DNA from: Promethearchaeota archaeon
Lineage (GTDB): Archaea; Asgardarchaeota; Lokiarchaeia; Sigyniarchaeales; SOKP01
Direction: 5' to 3'
Assembly: GCA_013375475.1 (NCBI GenBank)
Contig: JABXKD010000049.1
Coordinates: 1 to 27,906, forward strand
Length of the DNA: 27,906 bases
Position numbers and translations under genes: made by a program. This document shows, piece after piece, positions 1-15,827 of the stretch (position 1 is the stretch's first letter; each line of letters begins with the position of its first letter). The notes beneath the pieces are model-generated. The model was given only the letters and a program-made list of their open reading frames with translations. It did no database searches and was not told the origin of the DNA.

Positions 1-526
1 CTCTATCCCAATCAATACTAAATGGTTAGAAAACGGTTTAAACAATTTTAAGAGTGAAAAGGTTGCAGGAGTTTATGGCTATCCACTTACGCACTACGGA
101 GTATCTTTGTTTGAAAATATTATATATTCTATTAGCAGAGACCCCGGAAAAAGAAGATTCATAATAAGTAATGTTAAAAATATGAAAATAGGAAGATTTG
201 GTCCTTATTTTCATATTTTCCTATTTCTATGGTTTCCTATTACCGTCGCTAAAAAAATGAAAATAGGAGCTCTTGGCTTCACAAATGCAATTATCCGTAG
301 AGATTTATGGGAGAAATATAATATAAATGAAAAATTTGCTGGTGGGGGAGAAGATCATGATTGGGCGAGACATTGGGTAGCAAAAGGATTTGTTATAGTT
401 CATGAACCAAATTTTAAAGTTTATCATTCACATCATTATGGATCAATAGGTTGGATAAGACATTTTATTGGTTGGACCAAAATGACAAAAGAAATAGAAT
501 TTAAACCGCAAAAAAGAAATTTTTAA
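1..526 (+). CDS. Family 2 glycosyltransferase, 5'-partial (paralog of 11101..12015)
   Basis: Frame is open from base 2 (SIPINTKWLENGL...), so the track start at 107 is internal. Colinear with the C-terminal 174 codons of 11101..12015. Contains FTNAIIRR and GGEDHDW motifs. Confidence 0.9.
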   Translation, partial: SIPINTKWLENGLNNFKSEKVAGVYGYPLTHYGVSLFENIIYSISRDPGKRRFIISNVKNMKIGRFGPYFHIFLFLWFPITVAKKMKIGALGFTNAIIRRDLWEKYNINEKFAGGGEDHDWARHWVAKGFVIVHEPNFKVYHSHHYGSIGWIRHFIGWTKMTKEIEFKPQKRNF

Positions 527-549
527 AACAACATAAAAACAAATTAAAA
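1..549 (+). repeat. Long direct repeat, copy 1 (GT2 3' part plus ~23 bp downstream)
   Basis: Gap-free match to 11490..12038 (offset 11489); identity continues past the stop (aacaacataaaaacaaattaaaa). Confidence 0.95.
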
Positions 550-557
550 TAAAAATT

Positions 558-1045
558 ATGATTCAAAAAAAATACTAAAATATTTAGAAGAATCAGAAAA
601 AGCATTTGAAGCGGTAGAGCATCGTACGGTTTATACAGCTTATGATGCAGCAGCTACAATGCAAGTAGAATTAAATTCAATTGCTAAAAGTTTATTAGTT
701 AAAACAAACAAACCTCTTCAGCATGGGCTTAAACCCTATGCAGTAGTTATTATTCCGGCAGATAAAAATCTTGATTTAAAAAAACTTGCTAAAGCAATGA
801 GCACTAAAGATTTGAAAATTACAAAGGTTTCAATTCCGAAAGAAAATGTAATGAAAACAGTTTTTAAAGTTAAGCCAGGCTCAATGGCAGCTTTTGCATC
901 ACTTTATAAAATCCCAGTTGTGGTTGATAAAGCTTTAAAAGGCACTGTTGTATTCTCAGCTGGTAGTTTTACAGATAGTATAAAAATGAAAGTAACCGAT
1001 TTTGTTAAATTAGAAGAAACTATTCTTGGTGAATTTTCAGTCGCA
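558..1045 (+). pseudogene. YbaK/EbsC-family aminoacyl-tRNA deacylase-like gene, frameshifted at the 5' end and lacking a normal stop
   Basis: Frame of ORF 659 extends upstream as KKILKYLEESEKAFEAVEHRTVYTAYDAAATM, followed by IAKSLLVK, PGSMAAF and FSAGSFTDSIKM, typical of YbaK. ATG at 558 is out of frame by one base across an A8 tract (565-572). After ...LGEFSV the ORF runs through the next promoter and gene to 1246. Confidence 0.75.
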
Positions 1046-1050
1046 TTGAC

Positions 1051-1068
1051 CACGAATATTTTTAAATA
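1051..1068 (+). promoter_or_regulatory. Putative archaeal BRE/TATA promoter of the 1098..5455 operon
   Basis: cacgaatatt-TTTAAATA ending ~30 bp before ATG 1098. Confidence 0.5.
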
Positions 1069-1097
1069 CAAATTTATAATTAATATTAGTCGAGGAA

Positions 1098-2570
1098 ATG
1101 AATATAAAGAAAATGAAACCCATAAAAAAGTCTATTACAAAAATAGGCTTATTGACGGTAAAGTTATTTGGTTTGATGGAAATCTTTATACTTTTTGGAA
1201 TTCAATTTTTCTGGATTATATACAAGGGAGATCTGGCACCTACTGAGAATATTTGGGATTTATTAGCAGTTTTATTCCCATTTTTAATAGCTTGCATGGT
1301 AGGGATATCCTGCCGAATTGAGAAGTATAGGAGATTGTTTCGCAAGATGGAATGGCTCATTCATTTATTACTTAGTATTAGTTTCTTAATTCTTTTTATT
1401 CTTTTACAGACACGAGATGAGTTTTTTCCTTACATTCCATTTACATGGCTGTATTATTTTTGGATCATTATAATTGGTTTAATGCTCATCTCTGCGATCA
1501 TAATGAACTTGGACAAGCCTTCACTCCTTACAAATCTTAAAGATAAACGTAAATTTAGCGTGTTTATGGGAATTCTTGCCGTCTCATGGTTAGCAACTCT
1601 CGGAATGATTGTACTTTCACGACATCCGGTATATTTTTGGATAGTTTCTTCAATTTTTCACTCAATCATGATTCCATTATCTATCAGCAATCATGAAAAA
1701 CATCCGGAAACACGCGATTCCCATGTTGTTTACCGGAATTTCAAGCAAATAATATTGAGAAAAACAGGTGAGATTCAAATAGAAAAGAAGGAATCCGTTC
1801 CAAAATTGCGTTCACGTCATTTAAACTTGTTTTTCTTGAACATGTTGATCGTTTTTTCAATAATAATGCAATGGGACCCTAATTATATGGCCACCACCGG
1901 CGCCATACAATATAATTATCACTTAATAGTTGAGCTATTTTTATCTCCTTTATTTTATTTAGGATTCGGAATTGCATTATTAAATACAAGGTTTAAATTT
2001 CCTGTTATAGGAGACGGCATGGTATTGCCCTTCATGGCGCTGTCAATCATGGATATTTATTCATTCGCCCCGCTTACTCTCGGCTATGCTATAATGAGGC
2101 TTTTTTTGCATGGGAGCAATCAAACATCCAATAGTTATTTTTCGACAATTATGGGTGTTACCCTTACTTGGACTCTCGGATTGTACCTATTCGCTTATTA
2201 TGATTTTTTAGATTTTGTCATCTTTTTGGTTTTTGGAGGAAAAAGTTGGTCGGGAGAGTTTTCAATTAAATTATTTATAGTTTTGATTCTAACTTTTACT
2301 TTTTGTATTAATCTGGGATTTTTTTCTCTTGAAAAACATGTATCAAGACGTAAGAAGGAGAAAAAGTCCATGGATGATGAGGGTAGCGAAAAAGCGGTTG
2401 AAGGATTCAAGCAAATGAAGGGATTTTTTGACCTCCTGAATGATCACGTCATGGATTTGAATAAAGAGGGTAGAAAATTAATTGAACTCGAAGATTTTTT
2501 TGAATTATTGGACAAGTCCGGGTTAGACGCGAAAAAAATTAAAACTATAGAGGAAGTGTTAAATGAGTAG
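1098..2570 (+). CDS. Polytopic membrane protein of unknown function with a charged C-terminal cytoplasmic domain
   Basis: About a dozen hydrophobic segments in two blocks separated by a charged loop; overlaps the next gene by 8 bp. Confidence 0.85.
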   Translation: MNIKKMKPIKKSITKIGLLTVKLFGLMEIFILFGIQFFWIIYKGDLAPTENIWDLLAVLFPFLIACMVGISCRIEKYRRLFRKMEWLIHLLLSISFLILFILLQTRDEFFPYIPFTWLYYFWIIIIGLMLISAIIMNLDKPSLLTNLKDKRKFSVFMGILAVSWLATLGMIVLSRHPVYFWIVSSIFHSIMIPLSISNHEKHPETRDSHVVYRNFKQIILRKTGEIQIEKKESVPKLRSRHLNLFFLNMLIVFSIIMQWDPNYMATTGAIQYNYHLIVELFLSPLFYLGFGIALLNTRFKFPVIGDGMVLPFMALSIMDIYSFAPLTLGYAIMRLFLHGSNQTSNSYFSTIMGVTLTWTLGLYLFAYYDFLDFVIFLVFGGKSWSGEFSIKLFIVLILTFTFCINLGFFSLEKHVSRRKKEKKSMDDEGSEKAVEGFKQMKGFFDLLNDHVMDLNKEGRKLIELEDFFELLDKSGLDAKKIKTIEEVLNE

Positions 2571-2589
2571 TTTTGAAGAATTAAAAAAA
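2281..2589 (+). repeat. ~310 bp direct repeat, copy 1 (last TM + cytoplasmic tail + start of next gene)
   Basis: Matches 3638..3946 at offset 1357; both encode GFFDLLNDHVMD...FFELLDKSGLDAKKIK and the next gene's M(S/G)SFEEL. Confidence 0.9.
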
Positions 2590-3927
2590 GGCAAATATCT
2601 CATATTGGTATTAGGACTACTTTTCGCCATTTCATGCATTAGCATCTATTTCTTCGGTAATGTTCTATTAGGTAATAATAGCAGCATTGAAATTCCGGGC
2701 GAAAAAATATCGCGTCCTCCTAAAGCTTCAGGATCGTGGTTTTTGGATAACATTACCATTGATCCTACCGGGGCAACATCGGGATCCCTGACCTGGGCTG
2801 AAGCAGTAGCCTTACCTGCCGGATGGTGTTCAGGAGCAGGAACTTGGGACGATCCCTACGTTATTGAAAATATCACTATTAACGCGAGCACGTCACCTAC
2901 GGGAAACGGTATATTTATAAATAATTCCAAGAACGATTATTTTGTAATCAATAACGTCACGGTTTACAACGCAGCTTCGGGCGGAATCACGTTGGAAAAT
3001 ACCAATAACGGAAGCCTAACAAATAATGATTGTTCAAATAACCATGAGGGCATTTTTTTGAATGAATGTGTTAATAACACGATTTCGGGAAACCACTTAT
3101 CGGGGAGCACGGATTGCGGGATATTACTATTTAATTGCGAAAACAATACGCTATTAAGAAATGTTGCAATAAATAATGATAAGGATGGAATGGGGTTAGC
3201 TTATAGTAATAATAATACATTATTCGGAAATATTGCAAGTAATAATCCGGATCTCGGAATATGGTTATGGTATTGCAATTACACTAATTTATCCGGAAAT
3301 TTAGCAAGTAATAATCTATATGTCGGTTTTTGGATTTATCATTCCGATCAAAATACTTTTTTTAATAATACAGTAAATTATAATGGTTATCATGGAATGG
3401 AGTTCATAGGTTCGGAGAATAACAGCATAATCAAGAACACCTTTCAAAACAACGAGGCATATGGAATTGTATTAAATACCGATTCAAACTTTAATCGCAT
3501 TTTTAAAAATACTCTTATAAATAATGTTCAAGGATGCATCATGGATTCCAGCACGGGAAATATATATTACAATAATAAATGTAGTGATGATCCTGGTCTT
3601 GATTTAGCAGGAATCATGCTTTTATTTATTAGCATGTTTTTGATTCTTACTATCATTTTTTACGTTTATTTGGGATTTTCTTCTCTTGAAAAATATTTAT
3701 CAAGACGAAAGAAGGACAAAAAATCCATGGATAAAAAGGATACTGGAAAAGCAGTTGAAGGATTAAAGCAATTGATGGGATTTTTTGACCTCCTGAATGA
3801 TCACGTAATGGACTCATATAAAGAGGGTAGAAAATCAATTGAACGCGAATATTTTTTTGAATTATTGGACAAGTCCGGGTTGGACGCGAAAAAAATTAAA
3901 TTATTAGAGGGAGAGTTAAATGGGTAG
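2563..3927 (+). CDS. Membrane-anchored right-handed parallel beta-helix (NosD/CASH-type) protein
   Basis: N-terminal TM, WCSGAGTWDDPYVIENITI cap, ~10 Asn-rich GIxLxxxxNNTxxxN repeats, C-terminal TM and tail. Confidence 0.88.
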   Translation: MSSFEELKKGKYLILVLGLLFAISCISIYFFGNVLLGNNSSIEIPGEKISRPPKASGSWFLDNITIDPTGATSGSLTWAEAVALPAGWCSGAGTWDDPYVIENITINASTSPTGNGIFINNSKNDYFVINNVTVYNAASGGITLENTNNGSLTNNDCSNNHEGIFLNECVNNTISGNHLSGSTDCGILLFNCENNTLLRNVAINNDKDGMGLAYSNNNTLFGNIASNNPDLGIWLWYCNYTNLSGNLASNNLYVGFWIYHSDQNTFFNNTVNYNGYHGMEFIGSENNSIIKNTFQNNEAYGIVLNTDSNFNRIFKNTLINNVQGCIMDSSTGNIYYNNKCSDDPGLDLAGIMLLFISMFLILTIIFYVYLGFSSLEKYLSRRKKDKKSMDKKDTGKAVEGLKQLMGFFDLLNDHVMDSYKEGRKSIEREYFFELLDKSGLDAKKIKLLEGELNG

Positions 3928-3946
3928 TTTTGAAGAATTAATAAAG
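3638..3946 (+). repeat. ~310 bp direct repeat, copy 2
   Basis: See 2281..2589; stop and start positions map exactly (2570/3927, 2563/3920). Confidence 0.9.
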
Positions 3947-5455
3947 TTGAGGGACGCAACGAAGAAATCCATGGCTACAGAAAGTTTACCAAGGAAAGAA
4001 CTGCAAGTAAAAAAAAGCGGGGTTGCAATCCTTGCAATTATTTTAGTAGGTTTAATTTCACCATTTATAATCTTGAACCTCACGGTAAAAGGACCGCCAT
4101 TAGTTTTTCCTGAAAAAGAAAGACATGTGCTCGAAGATTTCTGCGGAGCAGGGGTCGTAAACATTGTTGAAGATGAACGGGAATTCAATAATTTGACGAA
4201 GCTCGGCGTACATTGGGTGCGCACCAGTTTTCCTTGGATAAGTATTGAATGGAATAATGATCAATATGATTATTCTGTTTATGACGATTACGTGGCAAAT
4301 TGCACTAAATACAACATGAAAATAATCGCTCTATTGCTTTGTTCTCCGACATGGTTAAATTTAAGCGGGTGGAATTACCTTCCGCCGAAATATATCGATC
4401 ATTGGCTAGAGTTTGTAAATAAAACCGTCAGACGATATAAGGATACGGTCGCAGCTTGGGATATTTGGAATGAACCCGAGACCAAACGATACTGGGACGG
4501 ACCAATTGAAGATTACTACTATCTTTTCGGCCGAACTGTCAATTTAATTCATGATATTGACCCCAACCTTTATGTTATGGGGCCGTCACTTGCATCTGCC
4601 GGCTCGGGCTGGTTCCCCCCTAATTTAGAAGACATGTTTAAGCTAGGAATCCTGCAACACTTAGACGCAATTGACATGCATATTTATAACTACGATCCTG
4701 ACATGACGTATCAAGCAATTAAGCAGTATGTTACTCTAGGGAACAAGTATGGATTCAAGGGAGATTATGTAATTTCTGAAATGGGAAACCCTACCCAAGG
4801 AGCATATCCATTCGTGGTATCCATGGAAAAATTGGCCGAGAACGTGATAAAAAACCTGGTTATTGCTTCAGCGCTTCAAATTAAAACCTGTGTTTGGTTC
4901 TGTTCAAGAGATTTGAAAGCGTATGAAACCGAGTACTATCTACCTGACTCCGAATTGTGGTTTGGTTTATCTTATAATAATCTTACCTGGAAAAAAGGAG
5001 CTCACGCCTTCAGTTTATTCAGCAAGTTTTGCTCAAATAGCACGTATTGTCCGGATCTCATTATTAAAGAAGGAGGAATTTCAGCAACTGATCTCATGGC
5101 ATCCTTATATCGACAAGAGGATGGTACTTCAACCTTGATAATGTGGTACGCTCCAACGCTTTATGAAAGTGGAACAGTAAAGGTTAATCTTGACCTTTCC
5201 GCAATAGGGGGAAGCATTTTAATACATGATATTTACACGGGCACTAATAGGACTTTAGACGAAAATTTCGTGGTAGTTGGTGATGCACCGATATTTTTAA
5301 CCTTTCAACCAAAACAAATTAATGACTCCATCACATTACAAGTTCAAGAATCGATATTAGCAGTTGTACTATATATAAGCATGATCGGAATGTTCATCGC
5401 CTCAATTAGTCTCGTAGTGGTAATCCGTAAACCTAACAAAGCTTCAAAGATATAA
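3920..5455 (+). CDS. Membrane-anchored clan GH-A glycoside hydrolase (GH39/GH5-like)
   Basis: LGVHWVR..FPW..IE, WDIWNEP (acid/base), IDMHIY and VISEMG (nucleophile) motifs; N- and C-terminal TM helices. Confidence 0.88.
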   Translation: MGSFEELIKLRDATKKSMATESLPRKELQVKKSGVAILAIILVGLISPFIILNLTVKGPPLVFPEKERHVLEDFCGAGVVNIVEDEREFNNLTKLGVHWVRTSFPWISIEWNNDQYDYSVYDDYVANCTKYNMKIIALLLCSPTWLNLSGWNYLPPKYIDHWLEFVNKTVRRYKDTVAAWDIWNEPETKRYWDGPIEDYYYLFGRTVNLIHDIDPNLYVMGPSLASAGSGWFPPNLEDMFKLGILQHLDAIDMHIYNYDPDMTYQAIKQYVTLGNKYGFKGDYVISEMGNPTQGAYPFVVSMEKLAENVIKNLVIASALQIKTCVWFCSRDLKAYETEYYLPDSELWFGLSYNNLTWKKGAHAFSLFSKFCSNSTYCPDLIIKEGGISATDLMASLYRQEDGTSTLIMWYAPTLYESGTVKVNLDLSAIGGSILIHDIYTGTNRTLDENFVVVGDAPIFLTFQPKQINDSITLQVQESILAVVLYISMIGMFIASISLVVVIRKPNKASKI

Positions 5456-5473
5456 TCTCAATTTACTAGTAGT
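5431..5473 (+). repeat. Short direct repeat, left copy (att/target-duplication-like), covering the GH gene stop
   Basis: acctaacaaagcttcaaagatataatctcaattt (34 bp) is identical at 10710..10743 and extends to 43 bp with 2 mismatches. Confidence 0.9.
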
Positions 5474-5506
5474 TTAAGAAGATAATTACGAGTAAATTTA
5501 TTTCTC

Positions 5507-6496
5507 TTAAATGTTTCGATTAAATAATTTTTTAGTGTTATCTGGTAGATAGTTATACAATAAATTCTTCATTTTTTCATAAATTATACTTATACCACTT
5601 TGAATCCATTCTGCATCATAAGGATCCACTTCACTAATTGCTTTTCTAAATAGAGGAATATCATACATATTCATAGGGCAATTGCAAAACTTAAACGGAC
5701 ACCTTGTTAATTTATCATTAAATTTAATTCCTTCATATATGTTTCCAAGAGACTTATTAATTTGATAACAATAATGGATATCTCCATTTGGATAAATTGC
5801 ACCAACATTAAACCCTGCATTACATAATTTTCCATATTGGTGAAATATGTTAATATCCTTTTTTGTTAGACCAAAAATCTTAAGTTCTTTTTCACTATAG
5901 GAATCAGGGTAAAATTTTCCTTTGTACTTTCCCATATAAGGACAAAATGTTAAATCAATTCCCTGTTCTAAAAATTTTTTTTTATATTTTTCGACATCTT
6001 TCAAAAGTGGGGGATATCCAACCTCAACAGCAAAAATAGGAAATCCTCTGTTTTTTAATAAAAAAAAATTATGAATGTATCTACTTAATAAATTCTTTCT
6101 TTCTAATTCTTTAATGTGACATGAAGCTGTAATAAATAAGACCCTTTCAGGATCAATTTTTTCAGCAAATTCTTCTACTTTTTTAGGTGTCAAGTTAGAA
6201 TTAAAAGCAATGAAGTGTTTTCTTGTTAATTCAATACAGGCTTCAACTATATTTGGAGTTAAAAAAGGTTCTCCACCCGTAAAACTAATTCTATAAATCT
6301 TATTTGAATCGTTAAGAGTCTTATTTAAAGCAGAAATATTAATGGGATCAATTTTTGTATTTAATTCTGATGGCTCATCACAAATCACCAGGTTGCGCGC
6401 AAATCCCGCAATACAATAATCACACTCTAAATTACAATCATATGAAGTAACCAAGTTCAAACAAGCGTCATATTGTGGATTTCGCAAATTAGACAT
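5507..6496 (-). CDS. Radical SAM protein with SPASM/twitch-like C-terminal domain (paralog D)
   Basis: CNLECDYC, FTGGEP, LCNAG...YPNGDIHYC...LGNIY...CPxxxCNCP. Start moved to the ATG homologous to that of 8728..9759. Confidence 0.9.
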   Translation of the reverse strand: MSNLRNPQYDACLNLVTSYDCNLECDYCIAGFARNLVICDEPSELNTKIDPINISALNKTLNDSNKIYRISFTGGEPFLTPNIVEACIELTRKHFIAFNSNLTPKKVEEFAEKIDPERVLFITASCHIKELERKNLLSRYIHNFFLLKNRGFPIFAVEVGYPPLLKDVEKYKKKFLEQGIDLTFCPYMGKYKGKFYPDSYSEKELKIFGLTKKDINIFHQYGKLCNAGFNVGAIYPNGDIHYCYQINKSLGNIYEGIKFNDKLTRCPFKFCNCPMNMYDIPLFRKAISEVDPYDAEWIQSGISIIYEKMKNLLYNYLPDNTKKLFNRNI

Positions 6497-6522
6497 TATA
6501 AAAAATACCAAATTACGTATGG

Positions 6523-6540
6523 TAATAAATTATATCAAAT
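6523..6540 (-). promoter_or_regulatory. Putative TATA box for a leaderless transcript, repeated at 7608-7614 and 8696-8702
   Basis: Minus-strand TTTATTA lies 26 nt before the ATG of paralogs D, C and B; no Shine-Dalgarno. Confidence 0.45.
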
Positions 6541-6555
6541 CTATCCATAATACTA

Positions 6556-7581
6556 TTAAATCCAATATTTAAAAAGATATTTACGTAAAAATTTATTGCT
6601 CATAACTTTTTCGATGATTAATTTTCTAGTGTTATCTGTTAGATAGTTTTGCTTCCCATCAAAAATAAAATTTTTCACAAATTGGCTAATTCTATATTTA
6701 GAAGGTTGAATCCATTCTGCATCATAAGAGCCAACTTCACTCATTGCTTTTCTAAAGAGGTAAGGATCATAAATATTCATAGGGCAATTGCATAACTTAA
6801 ATGGACACCTTACTAATTTATCCTTAAATTTAATTCCTTCATAGACGTTTCCAAAAGATTCATTAATTAATACACAATAACGGGTATCTCCATTTGGATG
6901 AATTATACCAACATTATACCCTGCATTACATAATTTTCCATATTGGTGAAACCAGTCAATAATATCCTTTTTTGTTAGGCCCAAAATCTTAAGTTCTTTT
7001 TCACTATAGGAATCAGGGTAAGATTTTCCTTTATAGCTTCCAAAATAAGGGCTATATGTTAAATCAATTCCCTGTTCTAAAAAAATTTTTATATATTTAT
7101 CACTCTCTTCCAAAAGTGGAGGATATCCTACTTCAATAGCCCTAATATTAAATCCTCTGTTTTTACATAATAAAAAATTATCAATGTACCTACTTAATAA
7201 ATTCCTTCTTTCTAATTCTTTAATGTGACATGCAGCATCAATACATAAAACCCTTTCAGGATCGATTTTTTCAGCAAATTCTTTCACACTTTTGGGTGTC
7301 AAGTTAGTATTAAAACTAATAAAGTGTTTTTTTGTTAATTCAATACAAGCTTCAACTATATTTGGAGCTAAAAAAGGTTCTCCCCCCGTAAGAGTAATCT
7401 TGTAAATCTTATTTGAATCGTTAAGAATTTTATTTAAAGCAAAAAGATTAAGAAAAGTTTTTGTCAATATTTTTGATACGTATCTTATTCCAGCAATACA
7501 GTAATTGCACTCTAAATTACAATGATATGAAGTAGCCAAGTGCAACCAAGCATCATATTGAGGATTTCGCAAATTAGACAT
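6556..7581 (-). CDS. Radical SAM protein with SPASM/twitch-like domain (paralog C)
   Basis: CNLECNYC, LTGGEP, same auxiliary Cys pattern. Confidence 0.9.
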   Translation of the reverse strand: MSNLRNPQYDAWLHLATSYHCNLECNYCIAGIRYVSKILTKTFLNLFALNKILNDSNKIYKITLTGGEPFLAPNIVEACIELTKKHFISFNTNLTPKSVKEFAEKIDPERVLCIDAACHIKELERRNLLSRYIDNFLLCKNRGFNIRAIEVGYPPLLEESDKYIKIFLEQGIDLTYSPYFGSYKGKSYPDSYSEKELKILGLTKKDIIDWFHQYGKLCNAGYNVGIIHPNGDTRYCVLINESFGNVYEGIKFKDKLVRCPFKLCNCPMNIYDPYLFRKAMSEVGSYDAEWIQPSKYRISQFVKNFIFDGKQNYLTDNTRKLIIEKVMSNKFLRKYLFKYWI

Positions 7582-7640
7582 TATAAAAAATACCAAATTA
7601 CGTATGGTAATAAATTATATCAAATCTATCCATAATACTA

Positions 7641-8669
7641 TTAAATCCAATGTTTAAAAAGATATTTACGTAAAAATTTATTGCTCATAACTTTTTCGAT
7701 GATTAATTTTCTAGTGTTATCTATTAGATAGTTTTGTTTCCTTTCAAAAAATAAATTTTTCATATATTCTTTAATTCTATTTTTAAAAGGTTGAATCCAT
7801 TCTGCATCATAAGGGCCAACTTCACTTATTGCTTTTCTAAAAAGGTAAGGATCATAAATATTCACAGGGCAATTGCATAACTTAACTGGACACCTTATTA
7901 ATTTATCATTAAATTTAATTCCTTCATAGATGTTTCCAAGAGATTTATTAATGAAAAAACAATAACGGATATCTCCATCTGGATAAATTATACAAACATT
8001 ATACCCTGCATTACATAATTTTCCATATTGGTGAAACCAGTCAATAATATCCTTTTCTGTTAGGCCCAAAATCTTAAGTTCTTTTTCACTATAGGAATCA
8101 GGGTAAAATTTTCCTTTATAGCTTCCCAAATAAGGGCTAAATGTTAAATCAATTCCCTTTTCTAAAAAAATTTTTATATATTTATCGCTCTCTTTCAAAA
8201 GTGGAGGATATCCAACTTCAATAGCCCTAATATTAAATCCTCTGTTTTTACATAATAAAAAATTATGAATGTATCTACTTAATAAATTCCTTCTTTCTAA
8301 TTCTTTAATGTGACAGGAAGCATCAATAGATAAAACCCTTTCAGGATTAATTTTTTCAGCAAATTCTTCTACTTTTTTAGGTGTCAAGTTAGAATTAAAA
8401 GCAATGAAGTGTTTTTTTGTTAATTCAATACAAGCTTCAACTATATTTGGAGTTAAAAAAGGTTCTCCACCAGTAAAATTAATCCTGTAAATCTTATTTG
8501 AATTGTTAAGAGTCTTTTTTAAAGCAGAAATATTAATGGGATCAGCTTTTGTAAATATATCTGATACGTATCTTATTCCAGCAATACAGTAATTACACTC
8601 TAAATTACATTGATATGAAGTAGCCAAGTGCAAACAAGCATCATATTGAGGATTTCGCAAATTAGACAT
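7641..8669 (-). CDS. Radical SAM protein with SPASM/twitch-like domain (paralog B)
   Basis: CNLECNYC, FTGGEP, same auxiliary Cys pattern. Confidence 0.9.
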   Translation of the reverse strand: MSNLRNPQYDACLHLATSYQCNLECNYCIAGIRYVSDIFTKADPINISALKKTLNNSNKIYRINFTGGEPFLTPNIVEACIELTKKHFIAFNSNLTPKKVEEFAEKINPERVLSIDASCHIKELERRNLLSRYIHNFLLCKNRGFNIRAIEVGYPPLLKESDKYIKIFLEKGIDLTFSPYLGSYKGKFYPDSYSEKELKILGLTEKDIIDWFHQYGKLCNAGYNVCIIYPDGDIRYCFFINKSLGNIYEGIKFNDKLIRCPVKLCNCPVNIYDPYLFRKAISEVGPYDAEWIQPFKNRIKEYMKNLFFERKQNYLIDNTRKLIIEKVMSNKFLRKYLFKHWI

Positions 8670-8727
8670 TATAAAAAATACCAAATTACGTATGGTAATA
8701 AATTATTTTAAATCATCCATAATAATA

Positions 8728-9759
8728 TTAAATCCAATGTTTTAAAAGATATTTACGAGAAAATTTATTTCTCATGATTTTTTCGATGATTAATTTTCTA
8801 GTGTTGTCTATTAGATAGTTTTGTTTCCTTTCAAGAAATAAATTTTTCATATTTTCTTTAATTCTATTTTTAAAAGGTTGAATCCATTCTGCATCATAAG
8901 GGCCAACTTCACTTATTGCTTTTCTAAAGAGAGGAAGATCATACATATTCATAGGGCAATTGCAAAACTTAACTGGACACCTTATTAATTTATCCTTAAA
9001 TTTAATTCCTTCATAGATGTTTCCAAGAGATTTATTAATTGCAAAACAATAACTGATATCTCCATTTGGATGAATTATACCAACATTATACCCTACATTA
9101 CATAATTTTCCATATTGGTGAAACCAGTCAATATACTTTTTTGTTAGACCCAAAATCTTACGTTCTTTTTTACTATAGGAATCAGGGTAAAATTTTCCTT
9201 TATATGGTCCAACATAAACCCAAAATGTTAAATCAATTCCCTTTTCTAAAAAATATTTTTTATATTTATCGCTCTCTTTCAAAAGTGGGGGATATCCAAC
9301 TTCAATAGCCCCAATATTAAATCCTCTGTTTTTACATAATAAAAAATTATGAATGTATCTACTTAATAAATTCTTTCTTTCTAATTCTTTAATGTGACAT
9401 GAAGCGTTAATAAATAAGACCCTTTCAGGATTAATTTTTTCAGCAAATTCTTTTACTTTTTTAGAGGTCAAGTTAGTATTAAAACTAATGAAGTGTTCTT
9501 TTGTTAATTCAATACAAGCTTCAACTATATTTGGAACTAAAAAAGGTTCTCCACCTGTAAAATTAATTCTGTAAATCTTATTTGAATTGTTAAGAGTCTT
9601 TTTTAAAGCAGAAATATTAATGGGATAAGTTTTTGTATATAATACTGATGGATTTGCTCCATATTGTGTTGCTTCACAATAATTACACTCCAAATTACAT
9701 TGATATGAAGTAATCAAGTGCAAATAAGCATCATATTGTGGATTTCGTATATTAGACAT
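8728..9759 (-). CDS. Radical SAM protein with SPASM/twitch-like domain (paralog A)
   Basis: CNLECNYC, FTGGEP, same auxiliary Cys pattern. Confidence 0.9.
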   Translation of the reverse strand: MSNIRNPQYDAYLHLITSYQCNLECNYCEATQYGANPSVLYTKTYPINISALKKTLNNSNKIYRINFTGGEPFLVPNIVEACIELTKEHFISFNTNLTSKKVKEFAEKINPERVLFINASCHIKELERKNLLSRYIHNFLLCKNRGFNIGAIEVGYPPLLKESDKYKKYFLEKGIDLTFWVYVGPYKGKFYPDSYSKKERKILGLTKKYIDWFHQYGKLCNVGYNVGIIHPNGDISYCFAINKSLGNIYEGIKFKDKLIRCPVKFCNCPMNMYDLPLFRKAISEVGPYDAEWIQPFKNRIKENMKNLFLERKQNYLIDNTRKLIIEKIMRNKFSRKYLLKHWI

Positions 9760-9859
9760 TATAAAAAATACTAAATTATGTCTAGTAGAAAATTGATATA
9801 AATAAATTAAAGAATTAGGTATTATTAAATTTTCGTTAGCTAAGGCAGAAGGACTAAAA

Positions 9860-10105
9860 TTGAGACCCCGATTTTTAAAAACTCTAATATCTCTAGATCG
9901 GGTATGCGGTTATTGTGGATATAAATTCAATCATGAGATAATAGAAATACTAAAAATAAATAAAAAAACAAGATTAGGAGTGAATCAAATAAGAAAAGGT
10001 TATAATATTTTCTGTCCGATGTGTTGCTCTTTTTCAAAATTCTTAGATCGTTTTTATGACCTAATTATTTATGAAAATTTAAATTTCATAGATTGTACTA
10101 ACTGA
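9860..10105 (+). CDS. Small putative zinc-ribbon protein
   Basis: Two CxxC pairs (CGYC, CPMC); TTG start; no family recognised. Confidence 0.45.
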   Translation: MRPRFLKTLISLDRVCGYCGYKFNHEIIEILKINKKTRLGVNQIRKGYNIFCPMCCSFSKFLDRFYDLIIYENLNFIDCTN

Positions 10106-10279
10106 AGATGGGAAACATTATAAATTTGGAATTGATATGATTAAAATCATATTAATTGCGTTAAATTTAAAGGAGTTAGAATAAATCTCCAAAACCAAGA
10201 GAAATAAATTCTGTGAAATATAAAAGATAAAATTTGCTTATAAGTTATAGGAACAAGAAAAATAATATAATCCAAAGAA

Positions 10280-10576
10280 ATGGGTAAGTTCAGTAATTTT
10301 TTCTCTGAATTCAAGGTCAACGATTATCTTATTCTTAGATTAGAAACCAACAGGACTAACATATATATCAAGGGTAAAATGTTTAGGCTGTGTAAATTTT
10401 TGCTATTAAGTATCCCTAAAGCGAAAGTCAAGGAGTATGATGATATAGAATCCATTGATGAGGCAGCAGAGAGAATAGATTCAACACCAGAGGGAAGAAA
10501 ATTAAGAAGATATCATATATCCGCTCAAACGGAATTTTTTGGACATTGTTCTAATCTCCAAGCGTGGTATGAAAAC
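10280..10576 (+). pseudogene. Truncated N-terminal module of the expanded Lokiarchaeal LRR-associated protein family
   Basis: EFKVNDYLILRLE..TNIYIKG..F..CKFLLL.IP...IESIDEAAE...TEFFGHCSNLQAWYEN matches my recollection of this family. After codon 10574-76 the ORF becomes unrelated sequence up to the stop at 10780. Confidence 0.65.
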
Positions 10577-10709
10577 ATTTCTATAACAATACTAATTTGC
10601 AGAATTAGTATTATATCCATAATAAGTAGGCTAAATGAGATAATGGTTTTAATAATAACTAATCCCGTTAAAAGATTAAAACGCTGTCTAATGAGCATCA
10701 GTCTACTAC

Positions 10710-10752
10710 ACCTAACAAAGCTTCAAAGATATAATCTCAATTTCTTAGTAGT
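10710..10752 (+). repeat. Short direct repeat, right copy
   Basis: See 5431..5473. Confidence 0.9.
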
Positions 10753-10818
10753 AAATACACTCTATCACTTCCTACAATAAAAATAAATGATATTATATAA
10801 AATCCTAATCTATAATAA

Positions 10819-10880
10819 GTAGAAGGGTCAAACTCCTAATATTCTTCCTTACTCTGTTTTTAGCCCTCTGACCCTTCTAC
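10819..10880. repeat. Perfect 12 bp inverted repeat followed by a T-rich tract (hairpin/terminator-like)
   Basis: gtagaagggtca (10819-30) / tgacccttctac (10869-80), 38 nt spacer, T-runs at 10884-10896. Confidence 0.75.
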
Positions 10881-10904
10881 ACCTTTTTATTTTTTTCTTA
10901 ATTT

Positions 10905-10985
10905 TTCAATACTTCCAGTTCCCTAAATACCTTCTATAAAACCGGTAAAACAACCGCTTCTATAGGGGGTAGGGGCGGTATTGAA
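10905..10985 (+). ncRNA. Candidate structured RNA hairpin upstream of the GT2 gene
   Basis: Nested stems 10905-13/10977-85, 10928-38/10961-71 and 10943-46/10953-56, with several G.U pairs that work only on the + strand. Confidence 0.35.
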
Positions 10986-11100
10986 CTTTTCAATAAAAAT
11001 TTTTATATTAATGTAACTTAGATAGATTTGTTTTATTTTAGTTTTTAAAAAAAGAGAATTCCAATTAAGTAATTGAAAAATACATTTAAAGCGAATTTTC

Positions 11101-12015
11101 ATGTTAGTAAATGAAGTTTTATGCAATAAATGTGGACAATTTTATAAAAAAACTAGTAGATATTGTATTAATTGCGAAGCTAAAGACATTGAATTAATAA
11201 AGCAGCATAAAAATTATGGAAAAAAAAATCTTGAAACTTCAATAATTATTAGAACAAAGAATGAAGAAAGATATTTAGAACATGTTTTGTTAATGCTAAA
11301 AAAACAAACTTATAAAAATTTTGAGATTGTAATTGTTGATGATACTTCAACTGATAAAACATTAGAAATTGCTAAAAAATATAATTGTAAAATTGTTAAA
11401 ATACCAGAAGGAAAATTTACCTATCCATATGCTTGTAATTTTGGTATTAGAGAAAGTATCGGTGAAAATATTGTGTTTTTAAGTGGGCACTCTATCCCAA
11501 TCAATACTAAATGGTTAGAAAACGGTTTAAACAATTTTAAGAGTGAAAAGGTTGCAGGAGTTTATGCGTATCCACTTAGTCACTATGGAGTAACTACGTT
11601 TCAAAGAATTTTATATTTTTTTAGCCAAGACTTCGGAAATAGAAGATTCATAATAAGTAATGTTAATAATATGAAAATAGGAAGACTTGATCCTTATTTT
11701 CATATTTTCCTATTTCAATGGTTTCCTATTACCGTCGCTAAAAAAATGAAAATAGGATCACTTGGCTTCACAAATGCAATTATTCGTAGAGATTTATGGG
11801 AGAAATATAATATAAATGAAAAATTTGCTGGTGGGGGAGAAGATCATGATTGGGCGAGACATTGGGTAGGAAAAGGATTTGTTATAGTTCAGGATCCAAA
11901 GTTTAAAGTTTATCATTCACATCATCATAAATTTATAGGTTGGATAAAACAATTTATTGGTTGGACCAAAATGACAAAAGAAATAGAATTTAAACCGCAA
12001 AAAAGAAATTTTTAA
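11101..12015 (+). CDS. Family 2 glycosyltransferase with N-terminal zinc-ribbon
   Basis: SIIIRTKNEE, IVIVDDTSTDKT, CNFGI, FLSGH and GGED motifs; N-terminal CNKC...CINC. Confidence 0.92.
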   Translation: MLVNEVLCNKCGQFYKKTSRYCINCEAKDIELIKQHKNYGKKNLETSIIIRTKNEERYLEHVLLMLKKQTYKNFEIVIVDDTSTDKTLEIAKKYNCKIVKIPEGKFTYPYACNFGIRESIGENIVFLSGHSIPINTKWLENGLNNFKSEKVAGVYAYPLSHYGVTTFQRILYFFSQDFGNRRFIISNVNNMKIGRLDPYFHIFLFQWFPITVAKKMKIGSLGFTNAIIRRDLWEKYNINEKFAGGGEDHDWARHWVGKGFVIVQDPKFKVYHSHHHKFIGWIKQFIGWTKMTKEIEFKPQKRNF

Positions 12016-12038
12016 AACAACATAAAAACAAATTAAAA
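11490..12038 (+). repeat. Long direct repeat, copy 2 (may extend further 5'; copy 1 is cut by the window edge)
   Basis: See 1..549. Confidence 0.95.
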
Positions 12039-12084
12039 AATTTTTTAACTTTTTTTAACTTCCTTCTATATAAAATTCGAAAGC

Positions 12085-12240
12085 TCAACCTCCATATCCG
12101 CTGTCACAAGGCTCTGGGTTAAGTATGAAATACATTACGACAAATAAAATAATCACTATTCCAATAATGCTTAATAATTAAAATAACAGATTTGTTATGA
12201 GTCCTTGGTTGGTAAAATGCAAAAAATTTGTTCTGTGTTG
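12085..12240 (-). pseudogene. Possible decayed 3' end of a membrane protein gene
   Basis: Reads NQGLITNLLF*LLSIIGIVIILFVVMYFILNPEPCDSGYGG*, with an in-frame TAA at 12178-80. Confidence 0.3.
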
Positions 12241-12319: not shown

Positions 12320-13414
12320 ATGTCAATATCCAATAAATCTAAACTTACTCCACAAGTGAATGCACTTATGGAGGAATTTCAGAAACTACAAATGCAAGCT
12401 ATTTCTGGGTTTCTTAAAATTAAAGAAAATCAAAAAATCAATTTTCTTAATCTTTGGAATAAGATGATGGAAGCAAATGCTCGGTGGGTTAACACTAAAG
12501 GAGAGGGTTTAACACTTGATGAACTATATGATCTTACGACTCATGAAGAAAGACTCTATCTTTCAAGATTATTACAATTCGTATTCAAGACTATGTCAGA
12601 TCAACAAGAACGTGAAAATCCGCTCCCAGAAGAGATAAAAATAGAGCAAATTAAAGTAGATGGGGTCCCAGCTGAATGGCAAATCGTACCAGGTGCAGAT
12701 GAACATCGAGTGTTATTATACTTTCATGGAGGAGGTATGGTTGTAGGCTCTCCTAGAGATTCGCGATACTTTACAGTTTCTTTGGGGCAAGCTACAAAGA
12801 TGCGCGTTTTGAGTGTAGATTATCGCCTTGCACCAGAATATCCTCATCCCGCAGGTCAAGAAGATTGTGTGAAGGCATATAATTGGCTTCTTTCGTCAGG
12901 AATAAAACCTAAAAACATAATTATTGGCGGTCTTTCAGCAGGAGGTTATTATACCCTCACAACCCTTTTGAGATTGCGGGAAGAAGGAATTTCTTTACCT
13001 TTGGGAGCGATTTGTATTTCACCAGGCACAGATTTAAGATTAGAAGAAGCTGATGACTCACTTTTTGAAAACGCTGAAACTGATCCGATCTTAGCAGATG
13101 GTGGACTATTATTGTTTTGTATTCCCGCTTACTTAGCAAGTAAAAATCCCAATGATCCATTAATTTCTCCAGTAACTGCTGATTTAAAAGGGTTTCCACC
13201 ATTACTAATACAGGCAAGCACGTGCGAAATGCTATATAATGGTTGCGAACGTCTTTTTGAGAAAGCCAAGGATGATGGAGTTGATGTAACCTTTGAGACC
13301 TGGAACGATGTACCTCACGGATTCCAAGTTTTTGGATTGAATATACTTCCTGAATCCGAAGATGCTATCAACCACATCAAAAGTTATATTCAAAAGTTAT
13401 TTAAGGAAGAATAA
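12320..13414 (+). CDS. Alpha/beta hydrolase, hormone-sensitive lipase family (family IV esterase)
   Basis: YFHGGG oxyanion motif, VDYRLAPE, GLSAGG nucleophile elbow, PPLLIQ..E, HGF. Confidence 0.92.
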   Translation: MSISNKSKLTPQVNALMEEFQKLQMQAISGFLKIKENQKINFLNLWNKMMEANARWVNTKGEGLTLDELYDLTTHEERLYLSRLLQFVFKTMSDQQERENPLPEEIKIEQIKVDGVPAEWQIVPGADEHRVLLYFHGGGMVVGSPRDSRYFTVSLGQATKMRVLSVDYRLAPEYPHPAGQEDCVKAYNWLLSSGIKPKNIIIGGLSAGGYYTLTTLLRLREEGISLPLGAICISPGTDLRLEEADDSLFENAETDPILADGGLLLFCIPAYLASKNPNDPLISPVTADLKGFPPLLIQASTCEMLYNGCERLFEKAKDDGVDVTFETWNDVPHGFQVFGLNILPESEDAINHIKSYIQKLFKEE

Positions 13415-14192: not shown

Positions 14193-14888
14193 ATGAAAAT
14201 ATCAGGATCAGGAACACTCTCTAAGATGAATCTTAACGACACAATATCAAGTTCGGGTTCAGTTAGAATAACTGGAGAAGTCGAATGTTTAGGTTTCAGA
14301 TCTTCAGGTTCCGCGAAAGGGGATGGAAATTTAATTGTTCATGGTGATTTTAAAAGCTCTGGTTCTTTTAATTTACGCGGGGCTCTAAATACAGATGGAA
14401 GTGCCAGATCATCGGGGTCCGCTACTATAGAAAAGGAACTTTTTGTTAAAGGAAAATTGGAAAGCTCTGGCTCACTACGCGTGGGAAATGGAGTTGAAGC
14501 ACTCGAAGGTATTAGATTTTCAGGCTCTTCTAGAGTGGATGGGGGTATAATCTCAGAAAAGGTCATTGAAATTGACGGATCAACTACCATTAGGGGAGAT
14601 ATAAAAGCAAACGATGTGCTTTTTGGGACTAATGCCCCATTTAGCGGAAAAAGAGGAGTGAAGCATCCGTACAAAGTTTTTGGTAAAATTTTTGCTGAGA
14701 ACGAACTAGAGTTAATAAATACCTTTGTTGATGGAGATGTTCGAGGTCGAGAGGTAAAAATTGGAAGAAAAACAGAGGTTACGGGAAAAGTTTATTATAT
14801 CGATTCTATAGAAGTTGACCCAAAAACTACCCTAGCCCATCAGCCAATTCAAATCTCCGAAATCACGGAAGATAAAATAACGAAATAA
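14193..14888 (+). CDS. Bactofilin-like polymer-forming beta-helix protein (resembles Bacillus YhbE/YhbF type)
   Basis: ~17 aa (S/I)SGSxxxxGxxxx repeats; MKISGSG start, GEVEC, and ELELINTFVDGDVRGREVKIG...V.Y end; GGAGG RBS. Confidence 0.78.
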   Translation: MKISGSGTLSKMNLNDTISSSGSVRITGEVECLGFRSSGSAKGDGNLIVHGDFKSSGSFNLRGALNTDGSARSSGSATIEKELFVKGKLESSGSLRVGNGVEALEGIRFSGSSRVDGGIISEKVIEIDGSTTIRGDIKANDVLFGTNAPFSGKRGVKHPYKVFGKIFAENELELINTFVDGDVRGREVKIGRKTEVTGKVYYIDSIEVDPKTTLAHQPIQISEITEDKITK

Positions 14889-14909
14889 TGAAAATAGTGG
14901 AGGATTATT

Positions 14910-15827
14910 ATGTCAGAAGAACCAAATAGAGAAAATGATAATTTTAAGGAGAGGAAAGAGTTTGATCGGAACAAAAGGGTTATAAACTACGAACTGGAAT
15001 GTCTAAGGGAAGATTTTTTAGAAGCTATTGAGGAATTACAGGATGATTTTAAGGAGCATGTTGATGATTTAAAAGAGAGAAAGGAAGAAATAACCGTTGA
15101 ATTAAAAGAAGAACTTCAAGATTTAGTAGATGAGAAAGAATATTTATTGCGAGATATTGATGATGTAAGAGACCAATTGGAAAATTTTGAAGAAGGTGCT
15201 ACAGAAAAAATTGAAGATGCGTATGAAAAATTACTAAAATTAAAAACTAAGAAGGAAAAATCCTTAGAAAAACATCTAGAAAAGTTAGAAAAAATACTTG
15301 AAAAAGCAAAAAAAAAGGCGGCAAAACGAATTAACATATCCGTTGACGAGGATACGAGCGAAGAGTGGAGGGATTGGTCGGACGAGTTAGGTTCTTCTGT
15401 TTCAGAGCTGATTCGAAAATCGATGAGATTCGTAAAAGACAACATTGGAGACCTTTCAAAACTTGACGAAATGGGGGAAACTATCGAACGCGCAGTCAGG
15501 GAATCTGGAATAGAAGATTTAGGAGAAAAATTAGAGCGTGAGTTCAAAGGGAAAAAAATCAAACCGAAGATAAAAATCAATCTCGAGGCTTCAGACGATA
15601 AAGACAGAATTAAAAAGAGGGTCAGGGGACTAATCAAGCTACAAAATAGTTTACCGATTGATAAACTCGCTCAAGCCCTTAACCGTGCAATCGAAGACGC
15701 AGAAAACCTTATATACGAATTAGTCGACGAGGGAATTGAAGGATCGTTGGAAGAGAATGTGTTTAAATTTACGAGTGCTCCTGAGGAAGTGATTGTAAAG
15801 ATTAACGAACTGATTGACAGAATGTAA
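14910..15827 (+). CDS. Coiled-coil protein with central ribbon-helix-helix motif and C-terminal winged-helix-like domain
   Basis: E/K-rich heptads over ~aa 25-135; KRINISVDEDTSEEW...SSVSELIRKSM (CopG-like RHH); LPIDKLAQAL...AENLIYELVDEGIEGSL (wHTH/PCI-like). Confidence 0.75.
   Translation: MSEEPNRENDNFKERKEFDRNKRVINYELECLREDFLEAIEELQDDFKEHVDDLKERKEEITVELKEELQDLVDEKEYLLRDIDDVRDQLENFEEGATEKIEDAYEKLLKLKTKKEKSLEKHLEKLEKILEKAKKKAAKRINISVDEDTSEEWRDWSDELGSSVSELIRKSMRFVKDNIGDLSKLDEMGETIERAVRESGIEDLGEKLEREFKGKKIKPKIKINLEASDDKDRIKKRVRGLIKLQNSLPIDKLAQALNRAIEDAENLIYELVDEGIEGSLEENVFKFTSAPEEVIVKINELIDRM

Follow-up and report, generated by a model that had tools for sequence, protein, structure and literature searches.

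A repeat-rich accessory island with a tandem radical SAM array in an Asgard archaeon, apparently exchanged between lineages and probably concerned with envelope glycans

The window analyzed here, 27,906 nt of Promethearchaeota archaeon DNA, is the entire contig C232 of a metagenome-assembled genome (MAG) of 288 contigs (G000; 3.92 Mb, completeness 100, contamination 6.41%). Its GC content ranges from 26 to 40%, and its proteins and loci have their closest named relatives among Asgard archaea (Candidatus Hermodarchaeota and Promethearchaeota). Throughout, C designates contigs of G000, G other genomes, L related loci or contigs and X sequencing runs, which were read as Logan contigs. The left 12 kb of the window belong to an accessory island that combines glycosyltransferase (GT2) genes, a membrane protein of MFS fold, a beta-helix protein, a GH39-like hydrolase and four tandem radical SAM genes (Table 1). 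A first-pass annotation had portrayed this region as a candidate accordion-like locus, built from four layers of nested direct repeats with two broken genes at their junctions, that diversifies the glycans of the cell envelope.

Table 1. Features of the island within the window (ORF, open reading frame).
Feature	Position	Strand	Remarks
Left GT2 unit copy, 3' part	1..549	+	ORF open from contig start to stop at 526; C-terminal 174 aa only
ybaK-like (tRNA_edit) gene	558..1246	+	Frameshift at A8 run 565-572; ORF from 659 extends into next gene
Polytopic membrane protein, MFS fold, 490 aa	1098..2570	+	~80-aa cytoplasmic helical tail
Junction duplication, copy 1	2281..2588	+	Membrane-helix end, basic connector, tail, next gene's start
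Beta-helix (NosD/CASH) protein, 454 aa	2563..3927	+	Membrane helix at both ends; own tail copy
Junction duplication, copy 2	3638..3945	+	Connector, tail, gene start
Putative clan GH-A, GH39/PslG-like hydrolase, 511 aa	3920..5455	+	Membrane helix at both ends
43-nt repeat, left copy	5431..5473	+	Last 8 codons of GH39 gene, stop and 18 nt
Four tandem radical SAM genes	5472..9836	-	Genes 5507-6511, 6556-7596, 7641-8684, 8728-9759; 44-45-nt spacers
Cys-rich small ORF, 81 aa	9860..10105	+	Upstream of radical SAM array; no family match; in L033 at 97%
LRR-family gene, 5' fragment	10280..10576	+	ORF (orf166) to 10780 in repeat-unit sequence
Right GT2 unit copy	10577..12038	+	Holds 43-nt repeat (10710-10752) and Zn-ribbon GT2 gene 11101-12015
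Island-specific spacer	12039..12195	+	G014 synteny restarts at 12196, upstream of esterase gene 12320-13414

Repeats and broken genes of the island

Self-comparison and BLAST bore out all four repeat layers, each far beyond chance. The outermost is a pair of GT2 copies (1-549 versus 11490-12038, 93% identical, spacing 11489). The second is a duplication of 310 bp at gene junctions (2281-2588 versus 3638-3945), 86-88% identical depending on the method (86% for 2281-2580 versus 3638-3937; 88% by BLAST for 2314-2584 versus 3671-3941). The third is a direct repeat of 43 nt (5431-5473 versus 10710-10752, 95%, spacing 5279, E 7e-13 in self-BLAST), both copies of which read PNKASKI followed by a stop. 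A local search of 4600-5700 found no repeat of 34-43 bp, so the short repeat that the first-pass annotation had placed around 5.2 kb is this pair, which brackets 5.3 kb. The fourth layer is the array of four intact radical SAM genes with a period of ~1085 nt.

The 310-bp duplication is accounted for by comparison with a related genome, G044, where the MFS and GH39 parts form a single 941-aa ORF and the beta-helix gene is missing. Relative to G044, positions 2382-3921 of the window are inserted and constitute a beta-helix cassette, complete with a membrane helix, a basic connector and a helical tail (~60 aa) of its own; the cassette's insertion produced the duplication. The two copies differ by dN 0.14 and dS 0.28 (nonsynonymous and synonymous divergence), and the split MFS/beta-helix/GH39 form is common to G000 and the related locus L041. 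The insertion is therefore old and not a recent junction artefact.

Both broken genes were also recovered. The first ~33 codons of the ybaK-like gene (from ATG 558) lie out of frame after a run of eight A; the gene scored 60.9 bits against PF04073, TIGR00011 was matched just from profile position 37, and homology of this region to other loci begins only at 956 or 1047. Contigs of runs X5 and X7 fit the window until 652 and then continue with ~255 unlike letters, which suggests a different arrangement at the ybaK start. The second broken gene, orf166 (10280-10780), starts as an LRR-family gene and keeps its first ~99 codons; the switch to repeat-unit sequence is at 10576/10577. Its residues 10-99 are 59% identical to the product of a gene for a 351-aa LRR protein on C37, and residues 100-166 match the end of C225. 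A third gene fragment lies beside the island at C225 29253-29666 (L095 11660-12073, minus strand), where a 137-aa ORF holds the C-terminal part only of an ABC ATPase (profile positions 82-137 of 137).

The cytosolic GT2 protein (304 aa) has an N-terminal Cys4 (Zn) ribbon and lacks a membrane helix; in the right copy, residues 47-196 matched PF00535 at 83.3 bits (cut-off 23.3). The contig, which the window comprises in full, begins inside the left GT2 copy and so truncates it, and over its first 77 nt the window does not differ from the right copy. The last 336 nt of C225 are 95.5% identical to window 10577-10911. The GT2 repeat unit is therefore 10577-12038 (1.46 kb), and of its left copy, one part closes C225, another is window 1-549 and the core between them is unassembled. 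Left and right GT2 differ at 37 positions, 19 of them within one 74-nt patch, and the left copy is 96.7% identical to the single GT2 of G044. Both allele types are found singly elsewhere (G044, L031 and L037 mostly L-type, L041 R-type).

This last observation, together with a contig that begins inside a repeat with 77 identical bases and the fragmentation and contamination of the MAG, would also fit an assembly or strain chimera, in which the alleles of two strains were placed in one contig and each real genome has one GT2 unit. One further point favors a chimera: at 10729-11082 run X1 has C225-type letters only, at single-copy depth (17.5), one of its contigs continuing such letters on to 11082. 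Against it, synteny with the related genome G014 puts C225 immediately left of C232, and L041 joins C225-like sequence, GT2 unit and island on the left side. X1 contigs match 520-2523 and 9597-10624 without any difference and so show both inner junctions in one run, the contig at the first inner junction having just 30 nt to its left, and an X1 contig at 11188-11566 has a depth of 28.5 compared with ~17.5 in its neighbors. Logan contigs carry no linkage, strand or read-level copy number, and uncovered parts in X4, X5 and X7 (12587-13000) do not count as absence. On balance we regard the chimera as rather improbable and a true duplication as likely. In X4, a contig of depth 11.1 connects 12192 to 546 via 12 other letters; the left GT2 copy there may retain the 154-nt spacer, or 546-12192 may occur in tandem or as a circle.

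Boundaries, variation and exchange between lineages

In G014, homologs of the C225 genes extend up to ~C225 27816 and are directly followed by the counterpart of window 12196 onward, beginning with the esterase gene. C225 and C232 are therefore neighbors in G000, and the ~16 kb between these points (C225 27817-31593, the unassembled repeat core and window 1-12195) are an insertion between a Rieske-oxygenase gene and the esterase gene, which are adjacent in G014. The small ORFs and most of C225 27817-29718 had no family match. The same applies to a 361-aa protein at C225 29824-30909 (L095 12231-13316, minus strand) in the shared island, for which dN is 0.046 and dS 0.017 between G000 and G044 (ratio 2.7).

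As the first-pass annotation had stated, no recombinase is in view: recombinase and integrase families were not matched in window ORFs of at least 80 aa (including the 81-aa ORF) or in the four ORFs scanned in the last 5 kb of C225. No tRNA was found at the island, and its ends have only 8-nt matches in common in place of att-like repeats. The integrase, att repeats and tRNA target by which an integrative mobile element (provirus, integrative and conjugative element or integron) would be recognized were not found here. What was found characterizes a flexible genomic island, namely insertion between syntenic core genes, patchy presence and divergence out of step with the core.

Comparison across related genomes agreed with a variable locus. 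The island is absent from the syntenic site in G014, the radical SAM family occurs in 2/42 genomes of the genus and 0/16 further genomes of the same order, and the GT2 in 2/41 genomes of the genus. There is no further radical SAM family member elsewhere in G000. Related assemblies carry 1, 2, at least 3 or 4 radical SAM copies in differing gene orders. Four copies downstream of GH39 are present in G000, L036 and L041. The L036 metagenome contig is 98.6% identical to window 999-7145, and two other loci cover 8724-10129 at 97% (L033) and 6175-7937 at 95% (L034). L041, a contig of G058, has the order of G000: C225-like sequence, GT2 unit, MFS, NosD, GH39 and four radical SAM genes. Together with L036 it provides independent instances of this order. 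Other orders are found in G044, L031, L037, L040, L043 and L035. In G044, GT2 is joined to a 5' radical SAM fragment, followed by two full copies, the fused MFS-GH39 gene, a methyltransferase and a GT4; a polysaccharide deacetylase is additionally present, and the island has other neighbors, with a ribosomal protein L5 gene nearby. The junction of GT2 and radical SAM fragment is identical in G044 and L031, at a 5-nt TAAAA microhomology, and L031 holds at least three copies; L043 and L035 hold one each. A tree of 22 radical SAM copies resolved at least seven types, with orthologs of copies 1, 2 and 4 in L041 and none of copy 3.

Judged from these sequences, copy number varies in accordion fashion between lineages (1-4 copies), but its four-copy state is stable across two divergent genomes. 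The part of the original claim that implied a fast accordion is unsupported, because G000 shares its array of four copies, including orthologs of copies 1, 2 and 4, with G058, whose rpoB is saturated at synonymous sites.

Divergence was estimated by the Nei-Gojobori method with rpoB as core marker; two methyltransferase-like C225 genes were dropped as multi-copy accessory families. Flanking genes gave dN/dS of 0.07-0.21 (nine genes, G000 versus G014). Within the island, ratios were 0.26-0.58 for MFS, NosD and GH39, 0.45-1.35 for radical SAM orthologs and 0.71-1.38 for GT2. Between G000 and L041/G058, island dS is 0.08-0.35 and rpoB is saturated (pS 0.76); between G000 and G044, island dS is 0.03-0.33 and rpoB dS 1.37. 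For comparison, rpoB dS between G000 and the island-less G014 is 0.10. Island dS thus lies far under rpoB dS, which argues that the island moved recently between lineages. This lateral exchange was missed in the first-pass annotation, as were the contig end inside a repeat and the MFS-GH39 fusion from which the 310-bp duplication can be understood. Between G000 and L041, radical SAM dS (0.08-0.11) is about threefold below that of the adjacent MFS, NosD and GH39 genes (0.31-0.35), a sequence difference hinting that the array was exchanged separately and later, or underwent gene conversion.

Candidate functions of the encoded proteins

All four array proteins belong to the radical SAM superfamily (PF04055, 33.7-38.7 bits; cut-off 29.5). 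Copies 2-4 share 73-79% protein identity with copy 1, with a mean column identity of 85%. The CX3CX2C motif (C26, C30, C33) is invariant in 22/22 aligned sequences, and five C-terminal cysteines (224, 242, 265, 270 and 272), including a CX12GX4C motif, are conserved in the family. In tests for a SPASM/twitch domain, PF13186 gave no match and Fer4_12 scored 20.4-21.4 bits, under its cut-off of 22. In Pfam (beyond the superfamily) and NCBIfam scans the copies reached no curated family cut-off, and an atlas search with the family returned generic 'radical SAM' clusters only. The search for relatives yielded 193 clusters at E <=1e-5 among 2205 candidates, mostly bacterial (Omnitrophota, Melioribacteraceae, Nitrospira) with some DPANN archaea. 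Outside Asgard loci the family is single-copy in 48/51 loci, and a basic C-terminal helix present in Asgard members is missing in most bacterial homologs.

A predicted model (pLDDT 81) matched the folds of anSME, BlsE, CteB, MoaA, SuiB, SkfB, viperin, EpeE, PqqE and BtrN with probability 1.0, TM 0.34-0.50 and 13-22% identity. BtrN (4m7t), which the first-pass annotation had cited as a precedent for sugar-like substrates, was merely at rank 39 (TMq 0.34, 15% identity), no closer than peptide maturases. Two specific assignments were tried and rejected. For a viperin or defense role (pVip), PADLOC matches cover profile positions 3-103 of 257, the N-terminal core only, and the NCBIfam viperin score is 30.7-37.1 bits against a cut-off of 180. 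For archaeal lipid-tailoring enzymes (Tes, Gms), the NCBIfam Tes score was 19-22 bits where 450 are required, and most members of the array's family are from bacteria.

The same fold matches raise the possibility of a protein or peptide maturase array, whose enzymes would crosslink or modify a peptide or the co-encoded secreted enzymes in the manner of anSME, CteB, SuiB and SkfB. These four are among the top matches (anSME at E 1.6e-9, TM 0.50), NCBIfam models of RiPP maturases (acting on peptides that are made by the ribosome and modified after translation) were weakly matched (30-38 bits), and the Cys-rich 81-aa ORF lies upstream. However, every NCBIfam score is far under its cut-off (200-855 bits), TM is only ~0.5, and the sugar-acting BlsE and BtrN are listed too. 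The 81-aa ORF does not accompany the array in G044, L043 and L040, and in other phyla the neighbors are glycosyltransferases, methyltransferases and B12 radical SAMs, with no recognizable precursor genes among the ORFs of at least 90 aa that were scanned. We consider a maturase array very unlikely.

Differences among the paralogs were claimed by the first-pass annotation, for both duplicated enzyme families, to fall mainly at substrate-contact residues. This was not borne out: 87/288 radical SAM columns vary among the paralogs, mostly where the whole family varies (entropy 1.96 versus 1.21 bits). Such a pattern fits relaxed constraint or specificity changes, as far as an alignment can tell.

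Genomic neighborhoods of distant radical SAM homologs were evaluated for 41/51 loci, taking in as many as four ORFs to either side (309 in total), with neighbor cut-offs of E 1e-5 in one scan and 1e-8 in two others. Seven loci left out were short or cut (L060, L065, L066, L073, L082, L088, L090), three lacked an ORF call at the match (L048, L057, L063), and ORF L055:1-3315 was dropped for the size limit. By raw count, a glycosyltransferase family occurred within four ORFs in 15/41 loci, often at least three times. An additional radical SAM gene, often of B12 type, was present in 15/41 loci, and a glycoside hydrolase directly adjoined the homolog in 4/41. In L092 (Woesearchaeota), a 604-aa ORF with GT2 and radical SAM domains (9030-10841) lies directly beside a family member.

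The island further encodes a membrane protein and two candidate ectoenzymes. The 490-aa protein matched no MFS family in Pfam or NCBIfam; its model (pLDDT 82) retrieved MFS transporters as 50/50 listed VIA matches (Z 12.9-18.2, 305-369 residues aligned; best match Z 18.2 over 337 residues), with TM 0.33-0.48 to MFS structures by Foldseek. Its relatives are rare (30 cluster representatives among 1.84 billion). A GH39/GH5/GH42-like domain stands behind the membrane part in 9/9 long homologs (832-1040 aa; 13 proteins scanned), a fusion for which we found no description in the literature in searches not aimed at it. The beta-helix protein matched PF05048 (137.9 bits) and PF13229 (97.1 bits). The nearest solved relative of the 511-aa hydrolase is PslG (E 4.6e-9, residues 86-240), followed by GH39 beta-xylosidases (E 2.7e-8 and weaker); Pfam GH42 (PF02449) was matched at 25.3 bits (cut-off 21) over 58 residues only. 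The protein contains WNEPE, which we take to be the acid/base motif of clan GH-A.

These proteins could also be read as a system for glycan foraging, in which an external polysaccharide would be broken down by the two ectoenzymes (GH39-like and beta-helix) and its fragments taken up through the MFS-fold protein, GT2 and radical SAM proteins being bystanders or processing the imported sugar. The transporter fold, its fusion to a hydrolase domain in all long homologs, the outward-facing orientation predicted for both ectoenzymes from their membrane helices and the relation to beta-xylosidases after PslG agree with uptake. On the other side, the locus has GT2 genes, accompanied in G044 by GT4, methyltransferase and deacetylase genes. 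The best hydrolase match is PslG, named for an exopolysaccharide system in which it reportedly acts. Pfam and NCBIfam scans found no sugar kinase, isomerase or binding protein in the island, and the membrane domain is without an MFS sequence-family match. We judge foraging unlikely.

We favor the reading that this is a laterally exchanged, recombination-prone Asgard accessory island that probably makes or tailors an envelope glycan or glycoconjugate. The diversifying glycan island of the first-pass annotation survives in its variability, glycan genes, raised dN/dS and absence from G014, and finds no support for the fast accordion, the contact-residue differences or the suggested pressure from viruses or symbionts. 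In the mechanism we propose, GT2s would add sugars, and each radical SAM paralog, with its basic C-terminal helix, would modify a sugar in a glycan precursor associated with the membrane. The MFS-fold domain would carry precursor or product across the membrane, and GH39 and the beta-helix protein would act on the polymer as extracellular trimming enzymes. Variant surface chemistry would then arise through unequal homologous and illegitimate recombination between repeats and through gene flow between lineages.

Several points weigh against this reading. No substrate or product is visible from sequence, and uptake of glycans would also suit the MFS-fold protein and two ectoenzymes. Protein- and peptide-modifying enzymes are among the best structural matches of the radical SAM proteins. 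Glycosyltransferase neighbors are lacking in 26/41 distant radical SAM loci, and they number 0/14 in Ignavibacteria/Melioribacteraceae-type loci and 15/27 elsewhere. Raised dN/dS may reflect relaxed constraint, and the Nei-Gojobori method is rough in a genome of 30% GC. Finally, the two-copy GT2 state depends on one assembly, and the single-copy depth in X1 described above speaks against it.

A bolder extension of the favored reading is conceivable and, in our estimate, remains speculative. The radical SAM genes might be a new family of glycan-editing enzymes forming a combinatorial toolkit, in which every type would alter a membrane-bound sugar precursor by its own radical chemistry. Unequal and illegitimate recombination might build arrays of 1-4 types, and their passage between Asgard lineages might then switch the surface 'glycotype', plausibly against viruses or for partner recognition.

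Little is known of the cell coverings, surface variation and gene exchange of Asgard archaea, relatives of the eukaryotic ancestor, and the island offers a concrete gene set that seems to be passed between lineages with synonymous saturation of their core genes. The locus further directs attention to an uncharacterized radical SAM family, found in glycosyltransferase-rich clusters of Omnitrophota, Nitrospirota, DPANN archaea and other phyla, and to an MFS-GH39 fusion family that connects a transporter fold with a PslG-like hydrolase.

Right flank of the window and relation to known systems

Right of the island, 14193-15827 encodes a 231-aa bactofilin-domain protein and, after it, a helical protein of 305 aa whose apolipoprotein-like and ZorA-like matches are weak. 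A 661-aa protein at 17407-19392 (minus strand) has a TrmB-type helix-turn-helix at its N-terminus and three 33-nt tandem repeats at 17742-17840. The window closes with two very large ORFs on the minus strand (20576-25294, 1572 aa; 25291-27906, at least 871 aa and open at the contig end), both made of repeats of ~101 aa (303 nt) and without a Pfam family; the small contig C86 matches 23922-24316 at 67%.

Among characterized enzymes, the array resembles the twitch/SPASM proteins anSME (4k37), BlsE (7vob), MoaA and BtrN (4m7t) in its CX3CX2C motif, its C-terminal cysteines with CX12GX4C and a fold probability of 1.0. It differs from them in low TM and identity and in the basic C-terminal helix of its Asgard members. 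The best full-length NCBIfam alignment was to NF038073 (STM4011-family; residues 25-280 on profile positions 11-255 of 278), and at 41-42 bits against a cut-off of 200 the array proteins are not members. The hydrolase shares with PslG-type GH39 enzymes of exopolysaccharide loci (PDB 4zn2, 5bx9), its best solved sequence relatives, the WNEPE motif and membrane anchoring; unlike PslG, to which ~155/511 residues align, it has a second, C-terminal membrane helix and relatives fused to a 12-helix MFS-fold domain.

As a whole, the locus is closest to flexible ('replacement') genomic islands for surface glycans, such as the O-antigen, capsule or glycosylation islands of marine bacteria and haloarchaea. 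Like these, the G000 island occupies a fixed site between core genes, is patchy in close relatives and rich in glycosyltransferases and putative sugar-modifying enzymes, has no integrase that was found, and shows raised dN/dS and divergence out of step with the core. It departs from the fixed-site type in that the G044 copy has different neighbors, and from flexible glycan islands in general in its Asgard host, its nested direct repeats, its radical SAM array of one to four copies and its split or fused MFS-GH39 genes.

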